A DNA stretch of 64,000 nt from IMG/VR virus record IMGVR_UViG_3300019742_000001; one strand, 5' to 3'. A model generated the notes under the pieces. That model searched no databases. It saw only the letters and a program-made list of their open reading frames with translations, and was not told the DNA's origin. This DNA is from a virus (taxonomy: Duplodnaviria; Caudoviricetes). This document shows positions 18,066 to 36,163 of the stretch, in pieces. A program made the position numbers and the translations under genes. The first letter of the stretch is position 1, and every line of letters starts with the position of its first letter.

Positions 18066-18086
18066 ATAACATGTCCTCCAAAATTA

Positions 18087-18428: not shown

Positions 18429-18451
18429 ATTAGTTACCTCACAGTTTATTT

Positions 18452-18988: not shown

Positions 18989-19081
18989 TTGTATCTCCTT
19001 TTAATACCATATTTGGTATCTACATTTTATACGAATAGGGTGCAGAACACCCTATTCTTGATCATCGGTAAGACTATTTAT

Positions 19082-19288
19082 CTAACGAACACAAACGTTT
19101 GATAGAAATGTCTCATAATAAGGTTCCCAAACTACATCTACAGAATCACCATCAATTTGTGTAATGATTGCTCTTCGGTCCCACTTTTGTTGTGCGTCCA
19201 ATGCTTCTTGAAATGTTTCAAACAGTTCAGGTAATGATTGGTTCCACTCAGTGTTTAGTACTTTGTAACTTCCGTTGTAAGAGTTCAT
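19082..19288 (-). CDS. hypothetical protein
   Basis: 68 aa ORF with RBS. Confidence 0.5.
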   Translation of the reverse strand: MNSYNGSYKVLNTEWNQSLPELFETFQEALDAQQKWDRRAIITQIDGDSVDVVWEPYYETFLSNVCVR

Positions 19289-19363
19289 AAACTCTCCATT
19301 TGTTAGGGGTTAATGTTTTTTGATATTGATATACATATTACATCAATATCAAATCGTTGTAAA

Positions 19364-20251: not shown

Positions 20252-20328
20252 AATAACTCTCCTGTTTTCTTTTATAGAAAGAGTATATTATTTTCGATGT
20301 CTTATGTAAACCTTTTTATTAATTAGAC

Positions 20329-20682
20329 CTACTTAATTTTACGAACAAACTTTTTACCGTTTTTATCTGTATGTCTTATGTAGAAAGAACGGTTATATTT
20401 AGTTTTGGACATATATTGCTGTGCATTAGATCCTGTTTTAAAACGAAGTCGTCTCCGTCCGTCTTGCATATTCTGATAAAACTCTGTATCTTCTACATCA
20501 AAACACGGAAACTCATCTTTTCCTTGTCTTACAACATCATCTGATCTTAAATCAGGAACATCTGTTGCATATCCTACTGGTGCATCAACACCATCAACAC
20601 CATCAACTGTTTGTGTATCTCCACCCATTGTTACATTATCGGGGTTGTGTGTATCTCCTGACCCTGACGTAAATTCACCCAT
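20329..20682 (-). CDS. hypothetical protein
   Basis: 117 aa ORF. Confidence 0.55.
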   Translation of the reverse strand: MGEFTSGSGDTHNPDNVTMGGDTQTVDGVDGVDAPVGYATDVPDLRSDDVVRQGKDEFPCFDVEDTEFYQNMQDGRRRLRFKTGSNAQQYMSKTKYNRSFYIRHTDKNGKKFVRKIK

Positions 20683-21157
20683 TTTGTTGTTCCTCCTGTT
20701 CGTTTATACAATAGTCGATTATTTTATCCAATCGTTCTTCTGTTATAGGCTTAGAAGTCTTGAATCTCACTTCCTTAACCTTTCTAAAAACCCTTTTACA
20801 TAATTCTCTATCAAATTCTTCGTTCTTTACACCAATTGACTTCTTGGCATAATCAATCACTTTATCAACAACCGTAGTATCTTTACCAGATAACGATTTA
20901 TCTTGTAGTATATTTATCTTTACAGAACTACCGCCTTCAAAAACTGGCTTTAATTTTCTGTACCGTAATCGTTGTTCTCCATTCATACTAAGATATTGTT
21001 TCATTAACTCATTTTTTAGACCTCTTTGGTCAATTTTATGGACAAACTCTCTGAACTGTTCGTTACCACCCAATAAGTTATCATCACGTATAGATTCAAG
21101 CAAAAACAACATTACCAGATCAGCAAATTCATCTGGTTTAACATGTACCTGACTCAT
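20675..21157 (-). CDS. hypothetical protein
   Basis: 160 aa ORF, translationally coupled. Confidence 0.55.
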   Translation of the reverse strand: MSQVHVKPDEFADLVMLFLLESIRDDNLLGGNEQFREFVHKIDQRGLKNELMKQYLSMNGEQRLRYRKLKPVFEGGSSVKINILQDKSLSGKDTTVVDKVIDYAKKSIGVKNEEFDRELCKRVFRKVKEVRFKTSKPITEERLDKIIDYCINEQEEQQNG

Positions 21158-21411
21158 ATTATCAACCTCACATTGTCACCTTTTTCTATTTTATTCATCA
21201 TCCTCTTATGTGACAACTTCACTTTTGAATCTTCTCGGAAATACGATGTCTTTAGTTTACCTAATGGTCTTGATGCAACGTGTTTCAAGAAAAGATCAAA
21301 CTCAGAACTATCCTCATCAATCCCTGTCAGATCTGTAGTATTAACGAGATTTACTAAATACAACATTATTACTTCGTTAAATTCTTCTTTTGTTAAATTT
21401 AAATTCATAAG
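21154..21411 (-). CDS. hypothetical protein
   Basis: Start probably MNLNL. Confidence 0.5.
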   Translation of the reverse strand, partial: LMNLNLTKEEFNEVIMLYLVNLVNTTDLTGIDEDSSEFDLFLKHVASRPLGKLKTSYFREDSKVKLSHKRMMNKIEKGDNVRLII

Positions 21412-21938
21412 GCTTTTATATCCTCTGGTGTGATTGTATTTAGAAATTTTTGCATGTCGTATAAATGACATACTGGTAGGTCACAAGTATCACCCCAATT
21501 CATTGTAATACAAGGTAGATGTTCTAATTTATTATTGAAACCAACTTCAACATCAGAAATTCCAACTAATGCATTGTACTGTTTCTTTTTATATATCAAA
21601 AAGGGGAGTTTATCAGCACGTATAGCATCACCAACACATTGTTCCCAAAATGCCTTTATTTCGTCGTTCTTTACCCCTTTAAGGTGTTTATGTAGATTAC
21701 TTGAGGGGTAACCATTTTTTGCCTCAATACTGAATTTATCGGTAAGAAATGCACCTTCTGGTCTTAACGGCATTATATCACCTGACAACTCTTTATTCTC
21801 TTCTGATATGGTAGCAATAGCACCAGATCCGGGCATTCTCCACCAGACGTAAGGCTTTTCACTACCTGTTAACCATTTTGTTAATATCTTTGCTATCTCA
21901 CGTTCCCATGATGATCCTTTTCCACTCTTTCCAGCCAT
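21405..21938 (-). CDS. Holliday junction resolvase (PD-(D/E)xK)
   Basis: KGSSWEREIA, PGSGA, GDI, SIEAKNG. Confidence 0.85.
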   Translation of the reverse strand: MAGKSGKGSSWEREIAKILTKWLTGSEKPYVWWRMPGSGAIATISEENKELSGDIMPLRPEGAFLTDKFSIEAKNGYPSSNLHKHLKGVKNDEIKAFWEQCVGDAIRADKLPFLIYKKKQYNALVGISDVEVGFNNKLEHLPCITMNWGDTCDLPVCHLYDMQKFLNTITPEDIKAL

Positions 21939-21958
21939 TTATCGTGTCCGTTAACATT

Positions 21959-22168
21959 TTATTTTATTTCAAACAAATCCTCTTCATCGGTGAAATGTTC
22001 TACTTTCTTCTTTTTTAATTTGATCGTGTCTCCACTATACTCACCATAAAGAGATTTCAACATTTCAAGATTGAAATTTATACCTGAATGACTGTCACCT
22101 TCTGACTCATCCAAACCCGTTATAAATTTTATTAGATCATCGTAATGGTTACCATACTCAGGATTCAT
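21959..22168 (-). CDS. hypothetical protein
   Basis: 69 aa ORF. Confidence 0.5.
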   Translation of the reverse strand: MNPEYGNHYDDLIKFITGLDESEGDSHSGINFNLEMLKSLYGEYSGDTIKLKKKKVEHFTDEEDLFEIK

Positions 22169-22175
22169 TTAAACC

Positions 22176-22706
22176 TCACTCTCTAAATTCTGATGCAGAT
22201 TCTAAAATTATTATTGAGTTTTCCTCATCAAATGTTTCTCCACTCTCAAACAATACATCATTTGCTATGTCTTGTATAGTCAAACTTTTATTCTCACCAG
22301 AACCAAAAGCCTGTATGTTTACAGGTATATACTTATCAGTTTCCTTTACACCTTTGATACCACTACTTATTAATTTAGATGCCCAATCAAATAACACATC
22401 TTTAATTTTCTTAGAAAACTTATTAATATTTACAGAATATCCTTGGTTACGGTATTTACGTACTCTTATCCATCCGTGTTTAATCAAATCAACTATGATT
22501 TCTTCACGGGCTTGTCCTTCAACACCTAACACTTCACCATATTTATCATATATATCTCGAATCTTCTTACCAGTATAACCGAATTTAGTTGGATTACTTA
22601 TAACAACGTCAATATGACTTGTACCAACCTCTACTAATTCACCAGAACGTGATATCCAATATGCTACATTTCCAGAGACTTCATTAAGATGTCTTTTAAA
22701 TTTCAT
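22176..22706 (-). CDS. hypothetical protein, possibly head-packaged
   Basis: MKFKRHLNE leader; TATAAATA at 22806-22813. Confidence 0.6.
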   Translation of the reverse strand: MKFKRHLNEVSGNVAYWISRSGELVEVGTSHIDVVISNPTKFGYTGKKIRDIYDKYGEVLGVEGQAREEIIVDLIKHGWIRVRKYRNQGYSVNINKFSKKIKDVLFDWASKLISSGIKGVKETDKYIPVNIQAFGSGENKSLTIQDIANDVLFESGETFDEENSIIILESASEFRE

Positions 22707-22855
22707 TGTATTGTAACCTCATGTTAAAATTTAGATTATTAATTATCCTAACATTCCTATCATCTTATGTCAGTCACACCCACATAAAAAAATAAGACTC
22801 AATAGTATTTATACCATTGAGTCTTATTAATTACATTATATTATATTAAACTTGA

Positions 22856-23836
22856 TTACATATCTTGCAGTTCAGCAAGTAATGCATCTGTGTCATCACC
22901 ACCTGAATCAGTTGTTGACTCTGCTACCTCTGGTGTAGCTGTTGGTGTTGGTGTTGACGGTGTTTCTGGTGTTGATTGGTGATCTGGTAATTCATCCATT
23001 TCTGCCATCGGATCAAGTGGTGCTGGTTCTTCACCTTTCCACACTTTGTTAAATAAATGACCTACATCATCCCATAACATTTCTGATTTAAGAAGTTCCT
23101 CATGTTCTTTGACACTGATCTTTAATGAATCAATGTACTCATCAAGATTTACACGATCACCCATCAATCGTTCAACTTCATCTTCGGTATCAGCAATAGG
23201 TGATGCTCTTCGTGCGAACATTGAGTCACCATAATCTGGCCATTCTTTACCATTCTTATCTTTTGGTTTTGCTTTTACTTTGATAATGAAGTCAAATCCT
23301 GTCTCTGGATCAAAGATTGACATCCCATAACCTTGTTCGGTATCTGTGATTTCATTCTTAATCTTTGACTCGACTGTGGCGGGAAATTCATATAAACGTA
23401 TCTGACCACCAACTTTGTAGTTTTCATCTTTAACATCAGCATCTCTTGGGTCCTCTGTGATATAAATGTTTGATACAAAACGAGTTTTTCGTTTATAGTC
23501 ACTAGCTTTACGCTTATCTGACTCATTACCTTGGTACAAAATCTTTGTCGCTTCACACCAAGGACAGAATTTGTCCATTCCGTGTGTTTTCTCACAAAGT
23601 AAATATTTGAATGTTTCGCCTGACATGAATCCGTGATACATGTAGTCTTTATAGAATCCTGACTCTACATCAGGCAAAAGACGAACTTTATACTCTTTTG
23701 CTCGTTCTGTTGTTCCCATCTGTGGATTCTTCCATTTCTTGTAGAATCCTGTTGTTGCTTGGGTATCATTGTCAGATTCCTTTTGTTTCTGATCTGCAAA
23801 CATATCATACGAATCTTTCTTTAGCCATTTACTCAT
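22856..23836 (-). CDS. ssDNA-binding protein (gp32-like)
   Basis: VRLLP, C..CP.CE, FVSNIYI..DP, GFDFIIK and an acidic C-terminal tail. Confidence 0.88.
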   Translation of the reverse strand: MSKWLKKDSYDMFADQKQKESDNDTQATTGFYKKWKNPQMGTTERAKEYKVRLLPDVESGFYKDYMYHGFMSGETFKYLLCEKTHGMDKFCPWCEATKILYQGNESDKRKASDYKRKTRFVSNIYITEDPRDADVKDENYKVGGQIRLYEFPATVESKIKNEITDTEQGYGMSIFDPETGFDFIIKVKAKPKDKNGKEWPDYGDSMFARRASPIADTEDEVERLMGDRVNLDEYIDSLKISVKEHEELLKSEMLWDDVGHLFNKVWKGEEPAPLDPMAEMDELPDHQSTPETPSTPTPTATPEVAESTTDSGGDDTDALLAELQDM

Positions 23837-23954
23837 TTTTAGTTCTCCTGTGTAACTTCACTGTAGTTACTGTTAAATTTGTGTCTTGGACACATACTGT
23901 TATTACTGAATTATACTGTTGTCTTACCCTTTTGTAAACTTACCACAGACCTTT

Positions 23955-24098
23955 TTATGATCTACCTCTACCTCTTCCTTGTCCGTTTCTTTGTCTTCGA
24001 CCCTGACCCTGACCTTGTTCCTGACTTTGACAATCACCTTGTCCTCGTCCTGTCTTTGATCCTTGACCATCTGGACCTGTTCCATCTTTTCTCGGCAT
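23955..24098 (-). CDS. DUF5320-like Gly/Arg-rich peptide (47 aa, not in ORF track)
   Basis: MPRKDGTGPDGQGSKTGRGQGDC...GRGRGRS*, GGAGGTG RBS. Confidence 0.75.
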   Translation of the reverse strand: MPRKDGTGPDGQGSKTGRGQGDCQSQEQGQGQGRRQRNGQGRGRGRS

Positions 24099-24115
24099 TA
24101 TATCACCTCCCTGAT

Positions 24116-24436
24116 TTATTCATTATCACAATCAATCATCAACATACGATACAAATCTTGGATTGTTGTAAATGGAATTAAATTGCCATCTGTGTCATAA
24201 ACTTCCATGTCACGGACACCAAAATCACACTCCCATAACCAATAATCAATCCATTCAGCACCATCATTCGTCAACTTTGATAGTAATCTTGATACAGCAC
24301 CAATCAACTCTGTATTGTATGTAATGAATCCCTCTGTCCGTAAAATATCACTAAGTTGTTGATCTGACTCATGATATGACTTTATCAACAAAATATACTT
24401 TTCGAATTCTGTATAAGTGATCATCATTTTATTCAT
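24116..24436 (-). CDS. hypothetical protein
   Basis: WIDYWLWECDFG motif seen in phage proteins. Confidence 0.55.
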   Translation of the reverse strand: MNKMMITYTEFEKYILLIKSYHESDQQLSDILRTEGFITYNTELIGAVSRLLSKLTNDGAEWIDYWLWECDFGVRDMEVYDTDGNLIPFTTIQDLYRMLMIDCDNE

Positions 24437-24552
24437 TGAGTTGTTGTTTCCCTTTATTTTTGGTGTCTTTCTCTTGTAATGTTTCACCACCACCATAAAT
24501 CAATTGTTCTTTGGTGGTCACCACACCCTCTTTGGGTTTTTCCATATACGGT

Positions 24553-25185
24553 TTATCCTCTTGCTCTTTCATCTAATTCTATCTCCTTTTGATTAATATA
24601 ACCTTTTACCAAAAGCAAACTCTCTTGTAGTTCACGATACCTTTGGGATATATAAGGCATTAACAACCGTTCATCATCTGACATAATCAAATATCGTTTG
24701 TTCAAACAGTATGTCAGTGTCATTGTATCAACCAATCCTCGGTTATATAATCCTATGACACATCGGATCTCCCCTTCACGAAACTTACACAAATTCTGTA
24801 ATTGTGTATAACCACTTCTAAGTGGTTGATCTTTAAGCCAATTTTCAATATTAACAAATGACTTATCAATCTCTTCGTGTGTTATTTGCATCTTCCGTTT
24901 CTTGATCTTATCTTTCTCAATGTAAAGATTTATTACACGACTATCACAGAAATGTTTGTACGTAAACCCTTTCCACAACTCAAATCCACATAACATGTAT
25001 TCATCTATGTCAATGTTTACATATTTTGTATTGAACCATACAGTAGCCTTGTACAACCATTCATCATTTTGTTTAGACATTTTAAGTTTAAATGACTCCC
25101 AATTCTTGGGTAAACGATACGGTTTGTCCTTTGCAATTGCTTGTGCTCTTCGAAATGAAGTATATACATCCCATTCTGTTATCAT
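24553..25185 (-). CDS. hypothetical protein (gp59-like position upstream of gp32)
   Basis: 210 aa; identity inferred from synteny only. Confidence 0.4.
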   Translation of the reverse strand: MITEWDVYTSFRRAQAIAKDKPYRLPKNWESFKLKMSKQNDEWLYKATVWFNTKYVNIDIDEYMLCGFELWKGFTYKHFCDSRVINLYIEKDKIKKRKMQITHEEIDKSFVNIENWLKDQPLRSGYTQLQNLCKFREGEIRCVIGLYNRGLVDTMTLTYCLNKRYLIMSDDERLLMPYISQRYRELQESLLLVKGYINQKEIELDERARG

Positions 25186-25188
25186 ATT

Positions 25189-25389
25189 CTATTCCTCATT
25201 TACATCGAAACCTAATCGATGTAGTTGTATATCATCCCAACCTTCATAGTCATCTTCCCATGAATCATACCCATAGTACATTTGTTTTATGGATCTCGTT
25301 GTCCATGAAAATGTGTTCTTAATAAAATCAAATACCAAATGATATCTAATCTTCGTTAACATTATTTTCTCAATCTTTAAGATAGTCAT
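25189..25389 (-). CDS. hypothetical protein
   Basis: 66 aa ORF. Confidence 0.45.
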   Translation of the reverse strand: MTILKIEKIMLTKIRYHLVFDFIKNTFSWTTRSIKQMYYGYDSWEDDYEGWDDIQLHRLGFDVNEE

Positions 25390-25434
25390 ACTAATATCCT
25401 ACATTGTTGGTGGTGATATGTAAACAGGAAGGGA

Positions 25435-25965
25435 TTACTCCCCTCCTGTTTCTTCAAATAGATTTTTCAACAGTTCTTCAATATCATACTTCTTCGTAAA
25501 GTATTGAATATGTTCATTTATTGTTGGTCGATATGGTTGATATCTCATAGACATTCCAGCTTGTTTGGGTGTTCTATCAGCTTTTTTATGGTTACATGTC
25601 TTACAAGATGTAACACAATTATTCCAAGTTGATTTACCCCCTTGTGCCTTTGGTATCACATGATCAACCGTACATTTCCCCATATCTTCAATGTATGTAC
25701 CACAAAATAGACATGTCTGATCGTCACGAACAAACACGTTTCTCTTAGAATAAGGAACACTTTTTTTAAAGACAGAACGAATGTACTTCACCACTCGGAT
25801 AACCGTTGGAATAGTGACAACCGTTGTTCTATCTTGATTACGTACTAATTTCTCAGTTTCCTTGATAGATTCTGCCTTACCTTCAATTAAAAGGCAAACT
25901 GCATTCTTCCACGAAGTGACACTTAAAAACGTATAATCTGCATTTAACACAACAACACTTGACAT
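25435..25965 (-). CDS. HNH endonuclease (McrA-like)
   Basis: VLNADY, RNVFVRD..C..C, TVDHVIP..GG..W.N.V.SC..CN..K. Confidence 0.9.
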   Translation of the reverse strand: MSSVVVLNADYTFLSVTSWKNAVCLLIEGKAESIKETEKLVRNQDRTTVVTIPTVIRVVKYIRSVFKKSVPYSKRNVFVRDDQTCLFCGTYIEDMGKCTVDHVIPKAQGGKSTWNNCVTSCKTCNHKKADRTPKQAGMSMRYQPYRPTINEHIQYFTKKYDIEELLKNLFEETGGE

Positions 25966-25983
25966 CTTATTACCTTCCTATAG

Positions 25984-26247
25984 TTACATTGCAAACGGGT
26001 TCTCTTGACCCTTCATCATAACCTTTTGTATTTTTTCATCGTCTTTTAAATCTTTGATATATCTTTTGTAATTCTCAATAGCTTTTTCTTTAGTTAAAAC
26101 ATACTCAGGTCTACCATTCTCATCCATTACTGTCAATTCTGATTTACCTGTATAACAGAACGTACACTTACACGCCCCATTTGATTCATCTACAATAACA
26201 CTCCAATCTGGATGTAGATATTTTCCACAAGTCACACATTTAGGCAT
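25984..26247 (-). CDS. zinc-finger protein
   Basis: CVTC ... CTFC; TATAAATA at 26291-26298. Confidence 0.55.
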   Translation of the reverse strand: MPKCVTCGKYLHPDWSVIVDESNGACKCTFCYTGKSELTVMDENGRPEYVLTKEKAIENYKRYIKDLKDDEKIQKVMMKGQENPFAM

Positions 26248-26298
26248 TTTATCTCCGTTTAAATTAAATTTTATTTTGTATCTGGTACAGTATTTATA

Positions 26299-26598
26299 TC
26301 AAAAAGTAGCAAGTTTGTCTAATGATTTATCAAGATCATTTCCAATACCTTCTGCATTAGCAGTGGTTCGTCTACAATACCCATTAAGATCACCATCAAC
26401 TAACCTTACTTCACTTGTACAATTTACTATCTCAAACTTCATTAAACCTGTCACCACATCATCAAGTGCTTGATACACATCACCAATATCTTCTGCATCA
26501 ATATCCTTTGCTGTGATGTTTACTGTTGGTTTAATACTCTCATAGTTTCCTGTACTAATAGTCAAACTACGAGATACTGTTACATCAAATTTACTCAT
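26299..26598 (-). CDS. hypothetical protein
   Basis: SRSLTISTGNYESIK motif. Confidence 0.55.
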   Translation of the reverse strand: MSKFDVTVSRSLTISTGNYESIKPTVNITAKDIDAEDIGDVYQALDDVVTGLMKFEIVNCTSEVRLVDGDLNGYCRRTTANAEGIGNDLDKSLDKLATF

Positions 26599-26613
26599 AT
26601 TTACCTCACATAT

Positions 26614-27192
26614 TTAATTTTCTACTCTTAATTTTCCATTCTTATAGTTAATAAATGGATCGTCAATGGATATCCCTTCACCATTAATAATCTCATCCTC
26701 TGTTAAATTAAGAGTGACTTTCTTTGGCTTGTATCCAACTACATCAACACCAAAATTGTAAAATGGGTCACCGTAATCATATTTGTGGGAATGCCCGTGT
26801 AAGTTATATCGTATATTGTTTTCTGTCAAAAAGTCTGATGTCTGAGGTCTGTGTGAAAAACAATACATCCCTAGACACCACCTATGTTTGAACACTCGGT
26901 TAAATCCTACACGGGCAAACCAATCCTTACTCTTCCTATCGTGATTCCCTGTAATTAAAATCTTATATCCATTTAATTGATCTGTAATTTCTTTAACCCC
27001 TTCAAATGAACCACCACATATATAATCCCCCAAATGAATTACTATTTCATCTGGTTTCACTACTTTATTCCAAGAAGTAATTATATGTTGATGCATTTCA
27101 TCCAAACTCGTAAACGGACGATCACAATACTTAATTATATTTTTATGGTACAAGTGAGAATCACTTGTAATATTTACTACTGTTTTTTTCAT
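26614..27192 (-). CDS. calcineurin-like metallophosphoesterase
   Basis: SDSH, HLGD, GNHD, SH, LHGHSH. Confidence 0.9.
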   Translation of the reverse strand: MKKTVVNITSDSHLYHKNIIKYCDRPFTSLDEMHQHIITSWNKVVKPDEIVIHLGDYICGGSFEGVKEITDQLNGYKILITGNHDRKSKDWFARVGFNRVFKHRWCLGMYCFSHRPQTSDFLTENNIRYNLHGHSHKYDYGDPFYNFGVDVVGYKPKKVTLNLTEDEIINGEGISIDDPFINYKNGKLRVEN

Positions 27193-27332
27193 ATTTCCTC
27201 TTATTATTATTTCTAACAATGATACCAAATAAATTATATTTTGTCACCTTTTTATTGACATTGACCCTCATTTATACGAGAATATATTAACGAAAATGAT
27301 AAATAAAAACGAAACAATTGGAGGGTGTAAAA

Positions 27333-27485
27333 ATGACGGATGTTGATGTTTGTGAGAATTGTGTTTATTGGAAAAAAACTGATTGGTCAGTTGGTGTATG
27401 TGAAGAAAACATTGAAACAAAAGAAACTCAATGGAATGATACATGTGATAATATATGTAAAAATAGTTTCCAAAAACACGAATAA
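27333..27485 (+). CDS. small Cys-rich protein (50 aa, plus strand, not in ORF track)
   Basis: MTDVDVCENCVYWKK...GVCEE...TCDNIC; GGAGGG RBS; TTGAC boxes at 27255-27266 with TATATT at 27283. Confidence 0.6.
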   Translation: MTDVDVCENCVYWKKTDWSVGVCEENIETKETQWNDTCDNICKNSFQKHE

Positions 27486-27537
27486 CCCTTTAAAGAGAAC
27501 AGGTCAATATCCCAATTGACCTGTTTCTTTTTATCTA

Positions 27538-29337
27538 CTATCCCAACATTTCCATCAAGTCAACATATGAAATGATTGGAACTCCGTAATCCATAGCCTT
27601 CTTTGTCTTACCACTCATATTAGTAGGATCATTGGTTACAAGATAATCAATCTTCTTACTCATACCATTGACACTCCCACCATTGGAATCAATCATTTTC
27701 TTTAGTACATCCCGTTTGATATCACTACTTCCTGTTAAACAAAATGACTTTCCACTAAGGTTATTCGTTGATGATGACCATTCCAAACCATTCTCAACCA
27801 AAATCTCATAAATTACTTTAAACTCACCAATCTGTTCAACAAAATTCTTAGCAAGAATCTGTCCGATACCATCAATTTTTACCAAATCTTCCTCTGTTAA
27901 TGTCCAGATATCAACAAAATCATAACCTTTTAGAATGCTCTTTGATGCTCGGTCACCAATACCTGTCATCCCAAATGAAGATAATAATTTGTCTGGTGTT
28001 GTTTTAAGGGTTTTGTTTATCTCAAAAATGATCTGTTGTGCCCGACGAATACCAAACCCTGACAACTGTGAAATTTCAATTTCATCAAGATCATAAACCT
28101 CTTTGAGTGTCGTAACACCTAGTTTTTTAAGGGTTACTGCAGTGACATTTTCACATCCAAGTTTGGTAAGAAAGTGTTCTACAACTTGTGTGTCACGGTC
28201 TTCACATACTGGAGCAACACATACAAGATCAACACCTTTCCATTGTAACAATGAACCACAAGACGGACATGATTTGTTTTTGTCAGTGATTTCAACGGAT
28301 TCCAACACAAAATCAATGTATGGAATTACATCACCTGAACGATAGATCCCTACTCTAGCACCAATATCAATACCATTATCTATAACAAATTTTGCATTAA
28401 ATCCTGTTGAGTTTGATACCGTTACCCCACCAATTTCTGTTGGGTCAATATTTACAACAGGAATAACACGACCTGTACGACCAACTTGCCATGTTACCCC
28501 AACAACATTACAGATGGTAGCATCTTCGTTTACTTTGAAGGCAACCTTGTCATCAGGATAATATGTGTCTTCACGTTGACTGTCATTACGGACAATTACA
28601 ACACCATCAATGTCATAGTTGTTTTCTTCTTTCCATTTCCTAAGAAGTGTTACCAGTTGTTCGTCTGTCTTTTCATCATCAACAACACTAGGTGCAAGTG
28701 GTAATCCAAGTTCTTCCATTTGCCAAATTCTGGTCATTTCATCATTGAATTCTGGATTAAATCCAATCTGTTCTACTAATTCATAGAACAATACAACCAA
28801 ATGTTCACACTGTTCTTCACCGTCACGATTCAGTATCCCAGCAACTCCATTTCGTCGTGTCTTATATCCAAGATCCTTGTATACATCACCAACCAACATT
28901 ACTTCTGCACGATATGACCCTGTTACTGGTTTGTTTAATTTTTGCGGTACTGCCTGTACCAACTTAGTAGTAATATCAGTACCATATGTTCCGTCACCCC
29001 TTGTTAATGCACGATTGTATTCACCATCTACATATTGAACCAAGGCAGACACACCGTCTAATTTTGCCCAATAAACCTTATCACCTGAGACTTCTGACAA
29101 AAAGTTCTGACAAGTTCCATCGGATTTAACTTTTGTTAATGAACCAAGAATGAATGGAAGTTCAACCTTCTGACCATCTACTGACGCACCTACAATATTA
29201 TTATAACTATTGTCTGGATACAATAACCGAAACCCTGTTTTAAATGCATCATATTCAAAGTCAGATATTGATGGTGTTCCTAGTTCATACTCCCTATCAA
29301 ATTTCCGTAACCCTTCAACCATTTGTGTTTCAGTCAT
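27538..29337 (-). CDS. ligA: NAD-dependent DNA ligase with BRCT domain
   Basis: AKLDGVS, TRGDG, YDIDGVV, VAFK, WQVGRTG, zinc finger, HhH repeats, BRCT. Confidence 0.93.
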   Translation of the reverse strand: MTETQMVEGLRKFDREYELGTPSISDFEYDAFKTGFRLLYPDNSYNNIVGASVDGQKVELPFILGSLTKVKSDGTCQNFLSEVSGDKVYWAKLDGVSALVQYVDGEYNRALTRGDGTYGTDITTKLVQAVPQKLNKPVTGSYRAEVMLVGDVYKDLGYKTRRNGVAGILNRDGEEQCEHLVVLFYELVEQIGFNPEFNDEMTRIWQMEELGLPLAPSVVDDEKTDEQLVTLLRKWKEENNYDIDGVVIVRNDSQREDTYYPDDKVAFKVNEDATICNVVGVTWQVGRTGRVIPVVNIDPTEIGGVTVSNSTGFNAKFVIDNGIDIGARVGIYRSGDVIPYIDFVLESVEITDKNKSCPSCGSLLQWKGVDLVCVAPVCEDRDTQVVEHFLTKLGCENVTAVTLKKLGVTTLKEVYDLDEIEISQLSGFGIRRAQQIIFEINKTLKTTPDKLLSSFGMTGIGDRASKSILKGYDFVDIWTLTEEDLVKIDGIGQILAKNFVEQIGEFKVIYEILVENGLEWSSSTNNLSGKSFCLTGSSDIKRDVLKKMIDSNGGSVNGMSKKIDYLVTNDPTNMSGKTKKAMDYGVPIISYVDLMEMLG

Positions 29338-29348
29338 ATAATAATCCT

Positions 29349-29873
29349 TTAATATTCGATGAATGGACCAAAATCAATCAGTCGATCAAGATGTTCCCAC
29401 ATTTTAATCTCAGTTTCGTGGAATTTATCACTTTCTTTCATTTCTGACATGAGAGTTTCCTTGAAATATGGATACTCTTTGGCATACATCATGAACTTTT
29501 CTTGACTATCATGTGTAGTCATTGTGATGTTGGCAATCCGATCACCTAACTTCACCATACGAGCAAAATGATCCTTTGCCAAGATAGGATATGTGTTTTC
29601 TTGACGTTCTTTTCTGTTTCGACCTCGTTTGTCAGTAACAAGATATGTCAACTCAGCAACACGATCACCAAATTCATCGTTAACATCTTCATATACTACC
29701 TGTGTATCTTCAATAGTATCATGTAACCAAGACACTACAAGAATCAACTCTTCAAAAACTCCAAAGGTCATCAAAATGTTATAGACATCGTTCAAATGTT
29801 TTGTGTAGGCATATCCACCGTATGTATCACCGTCATGTGCCTTAGTGGCAAACTTTTTAGCATCTAATAACAT
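29349..29873 (-). CDS. HD-domain hydrolase, RelA/SpoT (Mesh1-like) type
   Basis: AH.G..Y...Y..HL..V, WLHDTIEDT, VKLGDRIAN. Confidence 0.85.
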   Translation of the reverse strand: MLLDAKKFATKAHDGDTYGGYAYTKHLNDVYNILMTFGVFEELILVVSWLHDTIEDTQVVYEDVNDEFGDRVAELTYLVTDKRGRNRKERQENTYPILAKDHFARMVKLGDRIANITMTTHDSQEKFMMYAKEYPYFKETLMSEMKESDKFHETEIKMWEHLDRLIDFGPFIEY

Positions 29874-29894
29874 TTTGATTCCCTCTCAATGAAG

Positions 29895-30119
29895 TTACAG
29901 TATAAGTGATGATTCGTTTTCAGTCAAGGATTTTACTGCCTCAGTTTCTTCAATACTCTGTCCACAGTTCATACAAATATACGAACTTCCTACTGGTGCA
30001 ATTCCAGCTTTACCTGATGGACTCATTACAGCAGACACTTTCACAAAGGTCAAAATCTCTGTAAATGCCTGACTCTTACATTGGATACACTCTACAATTT
30101 CTTGTTCTTCAATACTCAT
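29895..30119 (-). CDS. small zinc-binding protein
   Basis: CIQC ... CMNC. Confidence 0.55.
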   Translation of the reverse strand: MSIEEQEIVECIQCKSQAFTEILTFVKVSAVMSPSGKAGIAPVGSSYICMNCGQSIEETEAVKSLTENESSLIL

Positions 30120-30826
30120 TCTTTTAAATCTCCTTCTGACTCATCATAATCTATTCTGGTATGGTAAATTCCATCCAGTTCCCTAATTAACCTACTTTGC
30201 ACCTGTCTTAATGTACCAACTTTCATTTCATCCAATTGCTCATCTTCTCTCAAACGATCAATTGTATCTTTTACTACTTTAATCTTTGACTCTGGTGTTG
30301 TCAATTTATCAGCCATAGATTTTGCTGTTGCCTCAACCGCATCAGCTATCATCAACAACGACGAATACTCAGATGATGGTTTTGGTGTGTTATACCGAAA
30401 ATGAGTCTCATCTTTACAATCGGTTTTGTTACAAATCGATTTTAAAACAGTATCTCCGTGATGTTCAATAATTACTTCCAACACTGACCTTGGAATATCT
30501 GTTTCTGCTGTCAATATCGCAATACTATCTGATATATGTCTTGTTATGATCTGATATGACATCTTTGGATCAAGTTGGTCATGTGGATTGTCTCCATTCT
30601 GATTCTCAGTAAAATAAGAAGGATTCCAAATCTTCCCTATGTCGTGATATTGAGCACAAACCTTTATGAAGGTTACATCAAGTCCGAGATCGGATGCCAC
30701 AGCCTCAACCAGACCTATTACTGCCTGTGTATGTCTGAATGTTCCGGGAGCCACAGCCTTAAACCTTTGAAGTAATGGATATTCTAAATCCAAATATTGT
30801 TTTAAATGTTCACTATCATCTGTCAT
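30116..30826 (-). CDS. stand-alone HD domain of the PgpH/7TM-HD phosphodiesterase family
   Basis: APGTFRH, YHDIGK..NP.YF.ENQ..NPHD, HHGDT, FRY..PKP, LMIADAVEA. Confidence 0.85.
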   Translation of the reverse strand: MTDDSEHLKQYLDLEYPLLQRFKAVAPGTFRHTQAVIGLVEAVASDLGLDVTFIKVCAQYHDIGKIWNPSYFTENQNGDNPHDQLDPKMSYQIITRHISDSIAILTAETDIPRSVLEVIIEHHGDTVLKSICNKTDCKDETHFRYNTPKPSSEYSSLLMIADAVEATAKSMADKLTTPESKIKVVKDTIDRLREDEQLDEMKVGTLRQVQSRLIRELDGIYHTRIDYDESEGDLKE

Positions 30827-30836
30827 ACTCCCTCCA

Positions 30837-31286
30837 TTAACTCCTTAGTTTATTCCTTAATTTCATCAACCGTGAACAGAACTCCGTTGTGGTCAATATG
30901 GTTTCATTTTTCTTCCTACGTCCCATCGAATGTGTCAATATCCCTGTCCCAGAAGCCAGTAGTGCCTTCCTAAAACCCTCACTATCGTCACATAATGCAT
31001 TGTATGCTCTATCTAAAAGATCTTGATATCTATCACTATCTCTTTTTAACTCAACACCCATCCAATACAGTTTTTGTTTCGTCTTCCAATTCTTCTTTGA
31101 ACCCTTTTTCTTTGCAGCGAAACCAACTAACTTACAAATTTCAATCTGCATATCAGGGTTAGAATACTTTAATGATTGAAGGAATCCTTCCATTGAGTTA
31201 CAAACAACTCCATCCAACTCAAATCGGTGTCCAGCAAAATTAGACAATTTATTTGATGGATAACTTCCATTACTTCTTATATCCAT
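30837..31286 (-). CDS. NADAR-like protein (T4 gp30.3-like)
   Basis: LSNF..H.F.LDG..C.SMEGFLQSLK, LYW.G, F..ALL. Confidence 0.75.
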   Translation of the reverse strand: MDIRSNGSYPSNKLSNFAGHRFELDGVVCNSMEGFLQSLKYSNPDMQIEICKLVGFAAKKKGSKKNWKTKQKLYWMGVELKRDSDRYQDLLDRAYNALCDDSEGFRKALLASGTGILTHSMGRRKKNETILTTTEFCSRLMKLRNKLRS

Positions 31287-31366
31287 TCATACCCCCCGTA
31301 ATTGAAAAAGTCTATGATAGACTAACACCACAGACTTTAACACTTTCCGTATAGATTGTAAACTAC

Positions 31367-31825
31367 TCAAATATCCTTTGAGTATGATGCCTTAATAACA
31401 AATGGTTGTCTCTCCAAACCATAATGTCGTGCCATTTTATTTGGTGTCACACGAAATTCATCCCATCCTAACAAGTAAGCACAAATCTCAGAACACCACC
31501 ACTTATCATTCTTCTGTTTCTTTATCGGAATAATATACCAAAATAATATACCAAAATAGTCATACTTCTTTCCAACTAAATCTGATGATTTATATCTAAG
31601 AAGTCTTTCTTGTTCCTCTGTAATATCAATATCTACATATTCCCATGTATTAGGATCATATGATATCTCCTTGAATCTAACTTCACCTTCTCTCGGTGAT
31701 GAAGACAAACTCATTCCGTCAGAGAAAACAAGTTCTATATGTGAATATCCATACATTCCTGTACCGATATCTATAATCTTATCAATTTTTGTTCCTTTTG
31801 ATGATTTATAAAATGCTAATTTCAT
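31367..31825 (-). CDS. permuted papain-like (YiiX/YebB-like) amidase
   Basis: YSHIEL ... KYDYFGI ... WWCSEI (His before Cys); TATAAATA at 31851-31858. Confidence 0.8.
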   Translation of the reverse strand: MKLAFYKSSKGTKIDKIIDIGTGMYGYSHIELVFSDGMSLSSSPREGEVRFKEISYDPNTWEYVDIDITEEQERLLRYKSSDLVGKKYDYFGILFWYIIPIKKQKNDKWWCSEICAYLLGWDEFRVTPNKMARHYGLERQPFVIKASYSKDI

Positions 31826-31897
31826 TAAATACCTCCATAATTATATAGAGTATTTATAAAAAAAAGAGGTGACCCTATAAAGAATCACCCCTCCAAA

Positions 31898-32086
31898 CTA
31901 CGTTACTGGTTTAGTTCTATAGAACACATGATAAAAATCTTGTTCTACTTGAATCGTAATAACATCATCTGCTGTTAATCCAAGTTGTCCCAGTTTAACG
32001 TTCATTTCCTGGACCATTGCTGGTGGTGTTTTTGACTTACCTTGCGGCGTAAAAACAGGAATTCCAAATGCTGACACTTTACTCAT
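31898..32086 (-). CDS. hypothetical protein
   Basis: 62 aa ORF with RBS. Confidence 0.5.
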   Translation of the reverse strand: MSKVSAFGIPVFTPQGKSKTPPAMVQEMNVKLGQLGLTADDVITIQVEQDFYHVFYRTKPVT

Positions 32087-32105
32087 ACAATATTACCTCA
32101 CAAAT

Positions 32106-32378
32106 TTATTTTACTTCTTCTACCTCTTCTTCCATTTCAAACATATCAAGGTCGCGACCTTCTTTGAACTCACTGATAAACTTGTTCTCTTGAATACTTG
32201 CATACTCATCGTTATCCATAATTACACACAAAAGTAATTGCTTTGGTAACTCAAATAATACTTGTAAGAACCTAACAACAACCATACATAATTGTAGGAT
32301 AGGTTGGAAGTAATCCATAGCCACACCAACAAAAAATGTCTTCTGAATGCTCATAAAATCTTTAATTGTTTGTTTCAT
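32106..32378 (-). CDS. hypothetical protein
   Basis: 90 aa with a hydrophobic middle segment. Confidence 0.5.
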   Translation of the reverse strand: MKQTIKDFMSIQKTFFVGVAMDYFQPILQLCMVVVRFLQVLFELPKQLLLCVIMDNDEYASIQENKFISEFKEGRDLDMFEMEEEVEEVK

Positions 32379-32612
32379 AATATTACCTTTCGTTGGGGGT
32401 TAATTTGATATGTTCTTATAATACACAATCTGATCTGAAACGTCAACCAATTACTTACTTCAACATTTCAAGATCTTCCATCCACGAATCATAACACCTT
32501 GGGCATAAATTGATTTTTGTTGGTAACTGTAATGACTTATCCCAACCCATAAAATCTACTTTCTTTGGGTCATTTGTTTTATTCTTGCATCCGTAACACC
32601 TGACTCGGTTCT

Positions 32613-33191
32613 TCATACTTTAGATATCTCCACCCGTTCAAACCACCCACGAGCATATCTCTCTTGATTAGGTGATTTCTTCATATAATTTATGTAATGG
32701 TTCCCCTGTAAAACATTCAACATCTTCAACAACAATTCAATACTATCATTCTCAAGATATAATTTCAAACATTTTTCTGTTGTCGGACCAAAATCACCAT
32801 CTTCAACCATATCAGAGTACAATTTACCATTACGATTCAATATATTAAGTGAGATCTGTAGAAATTTGACTGCCCTACCAACTCCCATATTAACCGATGT
32901 GTCAAACATTTCCATTGCCAACCCTAATGACATTGAGTCACCTTCATATGGATCGAAATACTTCTGTTTGTACAACTTTTTAACATCTATTTGAAGTAGT
33001 TCATCATCTTCAAGACATTCTGGAAAGTCAGTATCATCTCTAAGTGCGTCAATTACAAACCAACCACCCCACGATGGATTATACTTTCTGGAAATACCTT
33101 TGTATGTTTCTCCACCCGCATCAAGTGGATCATTACAGTAACCACCTTCATTCTTCATCGTTTTTGCATATGATTCTAAATAACAACTCAT
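32613..33191 (-). CDS. GH108 muramidase endolysin with peptidoglycan-binding domain
   Basis: EGGYCNDPLDAGGETYKGI, FDTSVNMG, DGDFGPTT, RGWF.R. Confidence 0.9.
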   Translation of the reverse strand: MSCYLESYAKTMKNEGGYCNDPLDAGGETYKGISRKYNPSWGGWFVIDALRDDTDFPECLEDDELLQIDVKKLYKQKYFDPYEGDSMSLGLAMEMFDTSVNMGVGRAVKFLQISLNILNRNGKLYSDMVEDGDFGPTTEKCLKLYLENDSIELLLKMLNVLQGNHYINYMKKSPNQERYARGWFERVEISKV

Positions 33192-33201
33192 CTGAACTCC
33201 T

Positions 33202-33489
33202 TTATTTAACCTTCACATGACACCCACCACATTTCGTTGGAGCCTCATTCTCTGGTAATTTATGACATCCTTTACATTCAGTATGTCCGTATTTCTTATC
33301 AACTTGCACTGGTGAACCATGAATATGACACACGGTACAATCCTCAATCACACTTGAATGTGTTGTATGATTGAATGTCACATCACCTTTACCTGTATAA
33401 TGTTTCGTGAAATCTGTTGATCCTTCCATAGCAAATGCAATACCACCTACCATTAATAACATAACCACTAACAATAAAATCTTCTTCAT
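33202..33489 (-). CDS. triheme cytochrome c7 (PpcA family) with signal peptide
   Basis: Signal peptide ending AFA; GDVTFNHTTH; CTVCH, CKGCH, CGGCH; distal His in YGH; PTKC. Confidence 0.9.
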   Translation of the reverse strand: MKKILLLVVMLLMVGGIAFAMEGSTDFTKHYTGKGDVTFNHTTHSSVIEDCTVCHIHGSPVQVDKKYGHTECKGCHKLPENEAPTKCGGCHVKVK

Positions 33490-33583
33490 AAAAAATCTCC
33501 TTTATTTGATTTATAATACACAAGTATTTAACCATAAAAAGGAGATTAATGTAAACGACATCTACCGTCATTTCTATAGATGT

Positions 33584-34312
33584 CTATGTATCTGATTGTT
33601 CTTTCCACAATATATTCATTGATTTATATAACATACCTGATGAATTTGTAGCATTTGGTACCGAAATACCCAAAAAGTTGATATTCTCTGTCAACTTATC
33701 AAAAATTATGTTATGTACATCACCTTTAATTCGCTTCTTCTTTAGTTCTGAATATCCCTGTAACCCAATAACTTTCTTGAAACTACTAGATATGGAATCA
33801 TTAGATACTTTACCAAAGTTCTCCCACTTAGAACCATCTTTCCCATACAATCCAAAGTCACCATCTATTCTAGCAACAAATGCATCTTGTTTATACTTCT
33901 TGGCAATCTGTTGCATCACACCGAAAAATAGATCTGTGGATGGTTGATTCAATATTAACCACGATTCCTCTAATGAATCCTCTATCCTACCACCATACGA
34001 ACTACATTGAGATATATTAATATCATCTGGTAACTCAACTGAACATTCTTTCCAATGACCTACCAATCGATAAGCACCATACCCTTTCCCCAACTTAGAT
34101 CTTACATCTTTTAATAATTGGTTATTTTTAGTTTGGTTTGTCTTTATTGATACTTTCTCACCATTTTCGTACTTTCTGAACGCAGTTATGATACAAAAAT
34201 CAACTGATTCATCTTTAAGTTTAGACATTACTCTACTTAATGATGCACCTGATTCAAGGATACATCTTTCCTCAACCTCCAAATCATCTGTTAAATAGGT
34301 GTCTAGTCTCAT
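33584..34312 (-). CDS. hypothetical protein, possibly head-packaged
   Basis: MRLDTYL leader; FCIITAFR...N..L...GHW.E motif seen in large phages. Confidence 0.6.
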   Translation of the reverse strand: MRLDTYLTDDLEVEERCILESGASLSRVMSKLKDESVDFCIITAFRKYENGEKVSIKTNQTKNNQLLKDVRSKLGKGYGAYRLVGHWKECSVELPDDINISQCSSYGGRIEDSLEESWLILNQPSTDLFFGVMQQIAKKYKQDAFVARIDGDFGLYGKDGSKWENFGKVSNDSISSSFKKVIGLQGYSELKKKRIKGDVHNIIFDKLTENINFLGISVPNATNSSGMLYKSMNILWKEQSDT

Positions 34313-34608
34313 ATCGTTATCTCAACCAATTCATTCTTCCATAACATACGCCAGTTCACATAAGATTTCTCATCTTCTGGATGGTTTTTACGGAAGAATC
34401 TAGTTAGATCTCCTGTTTCAATGATAACCTTTTTTGAATTACGGTACAGGTCATCAGTGTAATCGACTGCAGATTTCCAAGGTACACCAGTAACCTTTTC
34501 CATTTGAGAAAGTATCTCTGGCAGATCACTTGATGTTACCTTCTGTACAGTGATTTTAAATGATTTGTGATTCTTTATATCTTTTGTCATCTTCACATTA
34601 ATTGTCAT
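34309..34608 (-). CDS. hypothetical protein
   Basis: 99 aa ORF. Confidence 0.5.
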   Translation of the reverse strand: MTINVKMTKDIKNHKSFKITVQKVTSSDLPEILSQMEKVTGVPWKSAVDYTDDLYRNSKKVIIETGDLTRFFRKNHPEDEKSYVNWRMLWKNELVEITI

Positions 34609-34621
34609 TACTTGTCTCCAT

Positions 34622-34807
34622 TTACTTTAGGGATACACCCAAAACTTTTTTGATTATATTTTTAAACCCTTCCCAATCTTCTGCGTCAAGTATCTGTTCT
34701 AATTGACTGATTTGTGATTTTGTCGCCTCACCATAAAACCTAACAAGTTCTTCAAACCCAAGATTTCCTGCGTATGACGCTTCTTTTAAGTATTTTTCAA
34801 TTCTCAT
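34622..34807 (-). CDS. small hypothetical protein, possibly head-packaged
   Basis: MRIEKYLKE leader; CATAAATA late-like box at 34836-34843. Confidence 0.55.
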   Translation of the reverse strand: MRIEKYLKEASYAGNLGFEELVRFYGEATKSQISQLEQILDAEDWEGFKNIIKKVLGVSLK

Positions 34808-34849
34808 ATTACTTATCCTCCTAATTAGTCGGTAGTATTTATGAAAAAA

Positions 34850-34935
34850 TGGAGGAAGACAACGGACTTGAACCGTATCCTGTCACAGACGAATTGATTT
34901 CCAATCAAACCTAACACCTCGTTAGTTTATCTTCC
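34850..34935 (-). tRNA. tRNA-Ser(GGA)
   Basis: Cloverleaf, loop TT GGA AA, long variable arm, CCA end. Confidence 0.85.
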
Positions 34936-35089
34936 TTTTTGATTCCCTATATCCCATGAATAATATTTCACATATTCATCCCAAAAATCATATGGATTTG
35001 TTGACCTATATGGTGCATTCTTACCTTCAACATACTCATCTGATAGATCTAATCTACATGCCTTACCTTTCGGCATCAATGGATGTTCT

Positions 35090-35317
35090 TTACTCAATTT
35101 CTTCTAACCTTTCCTTATATTCCAAATCATCTAATAATAACAAAAATCTATTACTACACAAGGTATCCAATTGTGTCCATAATGATGAATATCTATACAT
35201 TTTACCGTAATTCGACACCATATTAAACGCATAGTTCAATTGTAAAATGTTTGTACAACTATGAATAACTTTTAAACATTTAGAGTAATCTCTGGATGAT
35301 TGTAAGATATCCTTCAT
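35090..35317 (-). CDS. hypothetical protein
   Basis: True start MKDIL; the longer ORF in the track runs through tRNA genes. Confidence 0.45.
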   Translation of the reverse strand: MKDILQSSRDYSKCLKVIHSCTNILQLNYAFNMVSNYGKMYRYSSLWTQLDTLCSNRFLLLLDDLEYKERLEEIE

Positions 35318-35336
35318 TTGATGTTCCTTTGAAAAG

Positions 35337-35408
35337 TGGTATCGGTAGAAGGAATTGAACCTTCCATCTGTCCGTATGAAGGACGGATTCGTAACCATAC
35401 ATACCGAT
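35337..35408 (-). tRNA. tRNA with probable CAT anticodon (ambiguous), reduced D arm
   Basis: Acceptor ATCGGTA/TACCGAT, T arm and CCA; anticodon arm can fold as TT CAT AC or as CC TTC AT. Confidence 0.55.
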
Positions 35409-35415
35409 ACAAAAG

Positions 35416-35486
35416 TGGAAGCGGAGGAAGGAATCGAACCTTCAAGTAAGTGGTTATGAGCCACCACGATACCCTGAATCCCCGCA
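35416..35486 (-). tRNA. tRNA-Met(CAT), initiator-like
   Basis: CT CAT AA loop, 1:72 mismatch, CCA end, short D arm. Confidence 0.75.
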
Positions 35487-35509
35487 ATAATTGTTTCTAT
35501 GAATATATC

Positions 35510-36163
35510 TTATTGAAGTATTTCTGTCAACGAACCAAAGTTATCTAATAGAACTTCTTTGATATCGTTTGCTATTACACGATGTTCTTTCTGTGTTGCA
35601 TCTTCACATCGTAATTGACAATAATGAATGAATGATCTTACATCACCTGTCAAATACATTGTGGTCATTGTTAATCCTTCTGGTAATACTTTACGTGCAA
35701 CTTCTTTAGCAATACCTTTGTCTAACGCTGCTTTATACAACTCAACAGATTGATCTCTCAGTCGTGCCTGATTGAGTGTCCACCAATCTTGTAATGCCTT
35801 GTCACTGGTTTCAAGTGAATTCTGCCGATTCTTTGTGTCTTGTAATCTAGCCTCTGACAGTTCAAATGAATCTTCGGTGACTTCTGCATATCTCTGTGAA
35901 AACTCTTGGAATTTACACGACTTATGTCTCAAAATTTGTCTACCAATGTCTCTTGTACATTTAATCTCAACTGTCATACTAGCTGTTTCGAATATTGACC
36001 AATGAGCATGATCTGCACAATATTTCAACAATTTAGCTGATGTATCATGGTTTGCCTGATTGGTAGGATTTGATACCCTAGCACAATAAGCAATTAATTC
36101 TTCTGCTGTTTCACATTCATCAATAACTGGTTTTGTTATTGCTACAAGTTTTACACTACTCAT
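35510..36163 (-). CDS. thyX: flavin-dependent thymidylate synthase
   Basis: HWSIFE, RQILRHKS..FQEFSQRY, AKEVARKVLP, R..IHYCQLR, QKEH. Confidence 0.95.
   Translation of the reverse strand: MSSVKLVAITKPVIDECETAEELIAYCARVSNPTNQANHDTSAKLLKYCADHAHWSIFETASMTVEIKCTRDIGRQILRHKSCKFQEFSQRYAEVTEDSFELSEARLQDTKNRQNSLETSDKALQDWWTLNQARLRDQSVELYKAALDKGIAKEVARKVLPEGLTMTTMYLTGDVRSFIHYCQLRCEDATQKEHRVIANDIKEVLLDNFGSLTEILQ

Follow-up and report, generated by a model that had tools for sequence, protein, structure and literature searches.

A triheme cytochrome c7 gene beside the endolysin gene of a giant T4-like mat phage and in its uncultured relatives

We analysed a 64,000-nt stretch of virus DNA (IMG/VR record IMGVR_UViG_3300019742_000001; Caudoviricetes), referred to here as the window, with respect to a gene that encodes a small cytochrome c7 and lies directly upstream of an endolysin gene. 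The features of this locus are collected in Table 1. The product of the c7 gene is a 95-residue precursor, to which the preliminary description of this DNA had assigned a signal peptide, three CxxCH motifs and three distal histidines, and the assignment is right in every detail. The N-terminus consists of MKK, a 16-residue hydrophobic run and AFA|M, with a maximum Kyte-Doolittle hydropathy (19-residue span) of 2.55 at residues 4–22, and residues 2–15 are helical in the AlphaFold2 (AF2) model. Export to the periplasm on this Sec signal peptide with its AFA motif is predicted, and the mature protein would have 75 residues and an apo mass of 8.2 kDa. This mature chain contains exactly three CxxCH motifs, as required for the c7/PpcA family, and no other open reading frame (ORF) of the window has two or more of them.

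Table 1. Coordinates of the c7 gene, its functional codons and the adjoining features in the window.
Feature	Position	Strand	Basis or remark
Cytochrome c7 gene, 95-aa precursor	33202..33489	(-)	ORF list, PF02085, c7 PDB matches, AF2, Foldseek
Signal peptide codons, residues 1-20, MKKILLLVVMLLMVGGIAFA	33430..33489	(-)	AXA-type site before Met21; predicted cleavage
Distal His codons H41-H44 (NHTTH), ligands of two hemes	33358..33369	(-)	Aligned with FDHKAH of D. acetoxidans c7
Heme-binding motif 1, C51-T-V-C-H55	33325..33339	(-)	Sequence and alignment
Distal His codon H69 (YGH), third heme	33283..33285	(-)	Aligned with conserved His before c7 motif 2
Heme-binding motif 2, C72-K-G-C-H76	33262..33276	(-)	Sequence and alignment
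Heme-binding motif 3, C87-G-G-C-H91	33217..33231	(-)	Sequence and alignment
Upstream region of c7	33490..33583	(-)	Blocks shared in alignment of seven phage loci
Endolysin, GH108 and PG_binding_3, without signal peptide	32613..33191	(-)	Glyco_hydro_108 77.4 bits, PG_binding_3 44.8 bits
53-aa Cys-rich (CxxC...CxxC) ORF	32455..32616	(-)	Start overlaps endolysin stop by 4 nt

In a phmmer comparison with all PDB sequences, the best match is the c7 of Desulfuromonas acetoxidans (E = 2.4e-11, residues 28–93 against 4–68), and 18 c7 entries, including PpcA–E of Geobacter sulfurreducens, are found at E values from 2.4e-11 to 1e-7 over the full mature length. PF02085 (Cytochrom_CIII, class III) scores 25.7 bits, against a gathering score of 22.9. 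The E value of 2.4e-11 to solved c7s and the PF02085 score above its cut-off together put the family assignment far beyond chance. All six cysteines, the three proximal histidines and the three distal histidines align with those of the solved c7s, and H41, H44 and H69 fall on the distal histidines of both the D. acetoxidans protein and a Geobacter c7. The layout is therefore that of Geobacter/Desulfuromonas PpcA with all ligands intact, as had been stated earlier, and we infer from the alignment that all three hemes have bis-His coordination. The AF2 model, which was built on 21 homologues and contains no hemes, has a mean predicted local distance difference test (pLDDT) score of 85.4. When it is compared with the PDB by Foldseek, ranks 1–19 are all c7s (target-normalised template-modelling (TM) scores of 0.63–0.73; root-mean-square deviations (rmsd) of 2.1–3.3 Å), and the tetraheme c3 structures follow far behind. 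Neighbours in the ESM Atlas are c7/c3 clusters, mostly from Thermodesulfobacteriota. By every family feature open to computation, the 95-residue protein is confirmed as a c7/PpcA-type triheme cytochrome with intact ligands.

The D. acetoxidans c7 (c551.5; PDB 1ehj, 1hh5 and 1new) resembles the phage protein in its three CxxCH motifs, its three distal histidines and the length of its mature domain (TM 0.73 and 46% identity by Foldseek). Unlike it, the phage protein is virus-encoded, is less than 50% identical, has a longer mature N-terminus (MEGSTDFTKHY), and carries the signature [DN]F[TV]KxY of the phage clade described below, with APTKC instead of GPTKC. The Geobacter proteins PpcA–E (PDB 1os6, 3bxu, 3h33, 3h4n and 3h34) have the same fold (TM 0.66–0.73; rmsd 2.1–3.0 Å), and share with the phage protein the ligand layout, the signal peptide and a Phe that is conserved ahead of the first distal His (F39 in the phage c7). 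Their identity to it is 33–42%. PpcA is strongly basic; the predicted isoelectric point (pI) of the phage protein is about 7–8.3 (75-residue mature form and 69-residue core). The tetraheme c3 of Desulfovibrio (class III, PF02085) belongs to the same superfamily, and the Pfam model that the phage protein passes is this class III model. However, c3 has four hemes, whereas the phage protein lacks the heme II segment, as in c7, and its matches to c3 are weak (E values of 0.001–1 by phmmer; TM 0.35–0.43 by Foldseek). Judged by these alignments, the phage c7 is a new, diverged member of the c7 family.

The genes of the window all lie on one strand, with a GC content of 32–40% throughout, and include 24 tRNA genes and a range of T4-type genes (gp30.3, gp32, a UvsX-like recombinase, primase, ribonucleotide reductase (RNR), ThyX, NAD-dependent ligase and virion proteins), with T4-like core genes on both sides of c7. 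The exact c7 protein occurs on 10 contigs (one of them 239,309 bp long) that were assembled from several microbial-mat samples by ENA (MEGAHIT), Logan and JGI; in these contigs the neighbours are the same and the DNA is 100% identical to the window. The base composition of the gene (36.1% GC, and 26.0% GC at third codon positions, GC3) is close to the means of 55 phage genes (35.3% and 26.8%). The identical junctions in three pipelines, together with GC and GC3 values at the phage average, exclude that the gene is a host fragment, whether misassembled or recently captured. At the level of assembled contigs the flanks are viral, a point that the preliminary description had proposed to confirm, and c7 is encoded by a genuine T4-like phage of about 239 kb.

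In a relative of this phage with a 98%-complete genome (235,765 bp), the portal is of the T4 type and a tyrosine integrase is lacking, so that calling the phage lytic, as was done at first, is reasonable, although this is not proven for the window genome itself. The portal of the relative is at most about 31% identical to those of cultured T4-like phages, and none of UvsX, the endolysin and the T4 portal exceeds 39% identity to any cultured phage. On these identities, the phage represents a deep, uncultured lineage.

The c7 gene is also present in other phages. Searched exhaustively with HMMER, 1.84 billion representatives yielded 257 hits, of which the nearest (41–60% identity) lie in phage contexts wherever the context can be read. 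In IMG/VR, scans with a single sequence gave nothing for either c7 or the endolysin, and alignment-based scans succeeded for both; a word-indexed protein search with c7 returned only c7 itself. There are 13 distinct phage-context c7 genes at 41–60% identity. These include P0003 (L006–L008), P0002 (L009 and L010), P0005 (L097 and L098), P0011 (L137), P0004 (L096), P0007 (L099) and P0019, as well as the genes of five IMG/VR records (L011–L015), which represent four distinct phages. The giant T4-like mat phage and at least 11 uncultured relatives carry an intact c7 gene, and the GC content of the clade is 27–40%. By tblastn, c7 has no match in 50,697 deposited phage genomes, which bears out the view that such a gene is unusual in phages.

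In nine distinct lineages, the window included, c7 is located directly upstream of an orthologous GH108 endolysin gene, with a gap of 3–20 nt. The endolysins of the relatives are 64–69% identical to that of the window where they were compared, and the flanks, where long enough, are syntenic (ThyX, HD protein, gp30.3 and HNH). Three phage-like contigs (L096, L099 and P0019) have c7 away from any GH108 gene. Among the IMG/VR records found with the endolysin profile, c7 accompanies every one of the five whose endolysin shares 64% identity or more with that of the window, and the 24 with an endolysin of 59% identity or less have no CxxCH ORF within 3 kb. An alignment of 21 c7 sequences has a mean column identity of 37%, and its invariant positions are the six Cys and six His of heme binding plus G35 and F39. 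Such a restriction of invariance to the 12 heme-binding residues and these two positions is the signature of selection for heme binding, and argues that the phage clade has kept c7 under selection with every heme ligand.

Within the window, the c7 stop codon (TAA, 33202–33204) and the endolysin start codon (ATG, 33191–33189) are spaced by exactly 10 nt, and both genes stand behind the same AAATAAAGGAG ribosome-binding context. Co-transcription of c7 with the endolysin, which had been proposed from the gap, is very likely, given so short a gap and the conservation of the pair across nine phage lineages. The 53-residue Cys-rich ORF is probably the last gene of this transcription unit. Its orthologues follow the endolysin in L006 and L011, and a promoter-like site for the next gene lies past it, at 32446–32418.

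About 110 nt on the 5′ side of the c7 start are conserved in seven phage loci (GATGT, GTTAAATA and AAAGGAG). The blocks in the window comprise GATGT, a −35-like hexamer TTTACA (33550–33555), the invariant GTTAAATA (33525–33532) and the Shine-Dalgarno (SD) sequence AAAGGAG (33497–33503). Outside this place, the GTTAAATA and GATGT blocks show no enrichment in the window, and hence are specific to this intergenic region and no general phage motif. The window contains 15 sites of the T4 late-promoter motif TATAAATA, an enrichment over the 7.6 expected, and 5′ of c7 this motif occurs only as a one-mismatch copy that is not conserved in relatives. Rfam has no match around the c7 gene. Taken as sequence blocks, the conserved upstream region suggests a dedicated, promoter-like element and leader for c7. 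As a separate observation, the c7 leader (33480–33600, minus strand) can fold into a hairpin GACATCTAT...GTAGATGTC and a helix that pairs AAUCUCCUUU with the SD region (minimum free energy −28.4 kcal/mol; z = −3.6); the anti-SD element is not seen in the aligned upstream regions of relatives.

Some of the relatives carry additional cytochromes at the same place. In L012, and identically in L013, a second triheme gene (L012:8291–8554, plus strand) is placed between c7 and the endolysin, with a 4-nt overlap at the stop of the first c7; it encodes 87 residues with a signal peptide, an HxxH and three CxxCH motifs (Paired_CXXCH_1, 27.5 bits), so that multiheme cytochromes occur as a tandem pair in this phage. 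In L009 (9674–9991, plus strand) and L096 (2674–2991, plus strand), a gene for a monoheme class I cytochrome c, whose 105 residues include a signal peptide and the motif CKICH (PF13442, 31.1 bits), is situated directly upstream of c7. These two contigs come from the same sample, and their monoheme copies are 98% identical, whereas the adjoining c7s are about 56% identical, which suggests that the monoheme gene was recently exchanged or duplicated. The occurrence of several soluble cytochromes side by side argues that electron transfer is the selected function. The cytochrome slot borders a tRNA/tmRNA region: genes for transfer-messenger RNA (tmRNA) lie just upstream of c7 in L014 (7525–7879; tag AEDNFALAA) and L015 (2708–3033; tag ADNNISYALAA), and a tRNA-Met gene ends about 90 nt before c7 in L012. 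L015 also has, between c7 and the endolysin, a strongly hydrophobic ORF of 53 residues (3984–4145, plus strand) that is a holin candidate, with none at this position in the window.

For the origin of the gene, we scanned 185,579 species genomes with the pattern [AG]PTKCxGCH, which gave 200 bacterial relatives. The best bacterial c7s are 42–47% identical to the phage c7, and the relatives are almost all from Desulfuromonadales, Geobacteraceae, Desulfobulbia and other metagenome-assembled genomes of Thermodesulfobacteriota, in loci of 41–75% GC and with no phage genes beside c7. In trees of 44 and 118 sequences, the ten phage-context c7s that were included form one group without bacterial members (ultrafast bootstrap 83 and Shimodaira-Hasegawa-like approximate likelihood ratio test (SH-aLRT) 98 in one tree; SH-aLRT 95 in the other, a quick tree). 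This group is nested among the c7s of Desulfuromonadales and Geobacteraceae. A phylogeny with PpcA–E and other c7s had been proposed as a check in the preliminary description, and its outcome favours a Desulfuromonadia-like donor and a single acquisition of the phage c7 long ago.

The present host is a different matter. A Desulfuromonadia host, as first suggested, is weakly supported: the nearest cellular c7s are indeed from this group, at 42–47% identity, but they indicate the donor lineage and not the present host, because the phage genes form an old clade of their own. BLAST of window positions 16001–36000 against 301 genomes of the Desulfuromonadia class gave no spacer-like or prophage match, and the tmRNA of L014, compared with 401 Thermodesulfobacteriota genomes, gave matches at its universal 3′ end alone. 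UvsX, the endolysin and the portal give no host hint, because they are too far from any cultured phage (see above). The clade's low GC does not exclude a host of 50–60% GC; T4, with about 35% GC, infects E. coli, with about 51% GC. The only recurrent BLAST match to Desulfuromonadia genomes is a DUF5320 ORF (23955–24098, minus strand; 47 residues, MPRKDGTGPDGQG...; 34.7 bits). At least a dozen of these genomes match its 5′ part, at 75–83% DNA identity across 56–115 nt or at 93% across 29 nt. This ORF is a second host-like small gene of a kind typical of anaerobes, and a weak hint to the host.

Auxiliary genes of phages are well known from photosynthesis and from the metabolism of carbon, sulfur, nitrogen and phosphorus, and T4-like cyanophages carry auxiliary genes for the electron carriers plastocyanin and ferredoxin. 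The amoC-phages carry a NapC/NirT multiheme cytochrome c that, according to a 2026 preprint, is still highly similar to host genes (bioRxiv 10.64898/2026.06.18.733297). The phage c7 resembles these cases in that a large T4-like or jumbo phage encodes a host-type electron-transfer protein which needs the cofactor and partner machinery of the host and presumably keeps up the energy metabolism of infected cells, and it belongs to this known class of auxiliary genes for electron carriers. It has the marks of an auxiliary gene, in that it lies inside a viral genome, is derived from a cellular c7, and keeps 12 of 12 heme residues invariant across related phages. It differs from the known cases in being a soluble periplasmic carrier, as opposed to a membrane quinol dehydrogenase (NapC/NirT) or a copper or iron-sulfur carrier, and in forming a phage-specific clade that is old, diverged and phage-like in base composition, in contrast to the host-like genes of the amoC-phages. 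A full-text literature search found no paper on a phage c7 and almost nothing on phage anaerobic respiration via multiheme cytochromes, the NapC/NirT preprint being the sole multiheme precedent found.

In G. sulfurreducens, ImcH, CbcL and CbcBA pass electrons to a free pool of the triheme cytochromes PpcA–E, from which they reach the outer-membrane conduits; any one Ppc paralogue is enough for the reduction of Fe(III) citrate, and restoration by PpcA is dose-dependent (PMC12307469). The pool is therefore redundant, promiscuous and dose-dependent, such that a foreign c7 can plug into it. On the reading that we favour and consider probable, the phage c7 is exported, matured by the host, and supplements or replaces the host's pool of periplasmic carriers, which would sustain electron flux and energy during infection. 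The gene would be transcribed with the endolysin from its own conserved promoter-like region, and the precursor would be exported by Sec and cleaved after AFA. The three hemes would be attached by the cytochrome c maturation system of the host, because the near-complete relative encodes no such system: its genome has no match to PF01578 (CcsA/CcmC/CcmF). In the same genome, a search for other cytochromes gave no match to PF13442 and no second in-frame CxxCH cluster. The earlier idea of a functional carrier matured by the host Ccm system agrees with the intact ligands, but is better read as a host maturation system of type I or II than as Ccm specifically. The resulting bis-His holoprotein of about 10 kDa would enter the host pool of diffusible periplasmic cytochromes and, like PpcA–E in Geobacter, bring electrons from the quinol oxidases of the inner membrane to reductases of the outer membrane or the periplasm. 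It may thereby keep or raise respiratory flux, redox balance and energy while host expression is shut down and a genome of about 239 kb is replicated. By analogy with the bacterial proteins, it could support respiration on Fe(III) or sulfur, as was first suggested; Mn(IV) or another acceptor is also conceivable.

Several points weigh against this reading. PF14522 (Cytochrome_C7) has no match to the window c7 at E ≤ 0.01; for several of the phage relatives this family is recorded, as weak, faint or unmarked. The bacterial sampling of the trees is partly biased by the search pattern, and the tree alignment has only 94 columns, with the deeper branching unresolved. The listing of sequencing runs contained no RNA run, and both expression and heme loading of c7 are predicted only. 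The fit of c7 to the quinol oxidases and conduits of the host is assumed, as no link to a host was found. Finally, the placement of c7 beside the endolysin is conserved, which leaves room for a role linked to lysis.

The alternative that survives best, although we regard it as unlikely, is a protective or terminal reductase role, in which c7 would shuttle less and instead reduce or detoxify soluble metals, polysulfide, oxygen or radicals in the periplasm, and so protect infected cells in the steep and fluctuating redox gradients of a mat. In vitro, the c7 of D. acetoxidans can reduce Fe(III), Mn(IV) and polysulfide; the phage comes from microbial-mat metagenomes, and the monoheme class I cytochrome beside c7 in some relatives would suit a short chain to a soluble acceptor. 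On the other hand, no sequence feature separates a reductase from a shuttle, and phage and bacterial c7s show no significant difference in charge or pI (Mann-Whitney p = 0.18 for net charge and pI).

We give still less credence to a role in lysis, according to which the redox state of c7 would report or buffer the respiratory status and proton-motive force, and c7 as an electron sink in the periplasm would delay the triggering of a holin and the release of the endolysin or, once oxidised or reduced, permit them. The position directly upstream of the endolysin in nine lineages would fit such a role, as would an endolysin that has no signal peptide and so depends on permeabilisation of the membrane, with no obvious holin beside it in the window. 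The same adjacency, however, is equally explained by inherited synteny in a plastic region near tRNA/tmRNA genes, and it is absent from the three contigs in which c7 stands away from GH108. Moreover, L015 has a separate 53-residue membrane ORF between the two genes, and the sole hydrophobic segment of c7 is its cleavable signal peptide, the mature part being a soluble c7 domain. With no membrane-retained segment beyond the signal peptide, c7 itself is ruled out as a holin, antiholin or spanin. As for the surroundings, the sole nearby ORF of the window with a hydrophobic segment is at 32106–32378.

A bolder form of this coupling, which we find just as doubtful, is that this phage clade has its own periplasmic cytochrome module (c7 alone, c7 with the second triheme protein, or monoheme c with c7) that is wired to the endolysin operon and would be more than a reserve for host respiration, acting as a virus-specified electron path or capacitor that couples the redox and energy state of the infected cell to the timing of lysis, in effect a redox-gated lysis clock.

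By far the least probable is an artefact or drifting passenger, that is, a misassembled host fragment or a recent capture without benefit: the c7 family is otherwise cellular and c7 is found in 0 of the 50,697 deposited phage genomes, but the junctions are the same at 100% identity in the ENA/MEGAHIT, Logan and JGI contigs from several samples, the base composition matches the phage, all of the closest relatives have phage contexts while the nearest bacterial genes reach at most 47% identity, every heme ligand is kept across 40–60% divergence, and the upstream regulatory block is conserved.

The phage c7 is hence neither a one-off nor a recent capture, and belongs to an old phage-specific clade in which some members have further cytochromes. 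Viruses that carry c7 probably alter the respiration of their hosts during infection. If c7 is active, viruses would join directly in the periplasmic and extracellular electron transfer of mats and sediments, with effects on iron, manganese and sulfur cycling and possibly on bioelectrochemical systems. An active c7 would also make the phage clade a natural set of compact, diverged c7 variants in which the evolution of redox tuning and partner recognition can be followed.

Two further observations concern individual contigs. A 726-bp contig (L100) contains a 97-residue c7 relative (L100:156–449; P0009) that translates only with TAG read as Gln, and groups in the tree with a c7 of Bdellovibrionales, outside the phage clade. 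Just 3′ of the endolysin, at window positions 32478–32485, three independently assembled contigs (L003, L004 and L005) come to an end, and these shared ends suggest strain-level variation or an assembly-breaking repeat.

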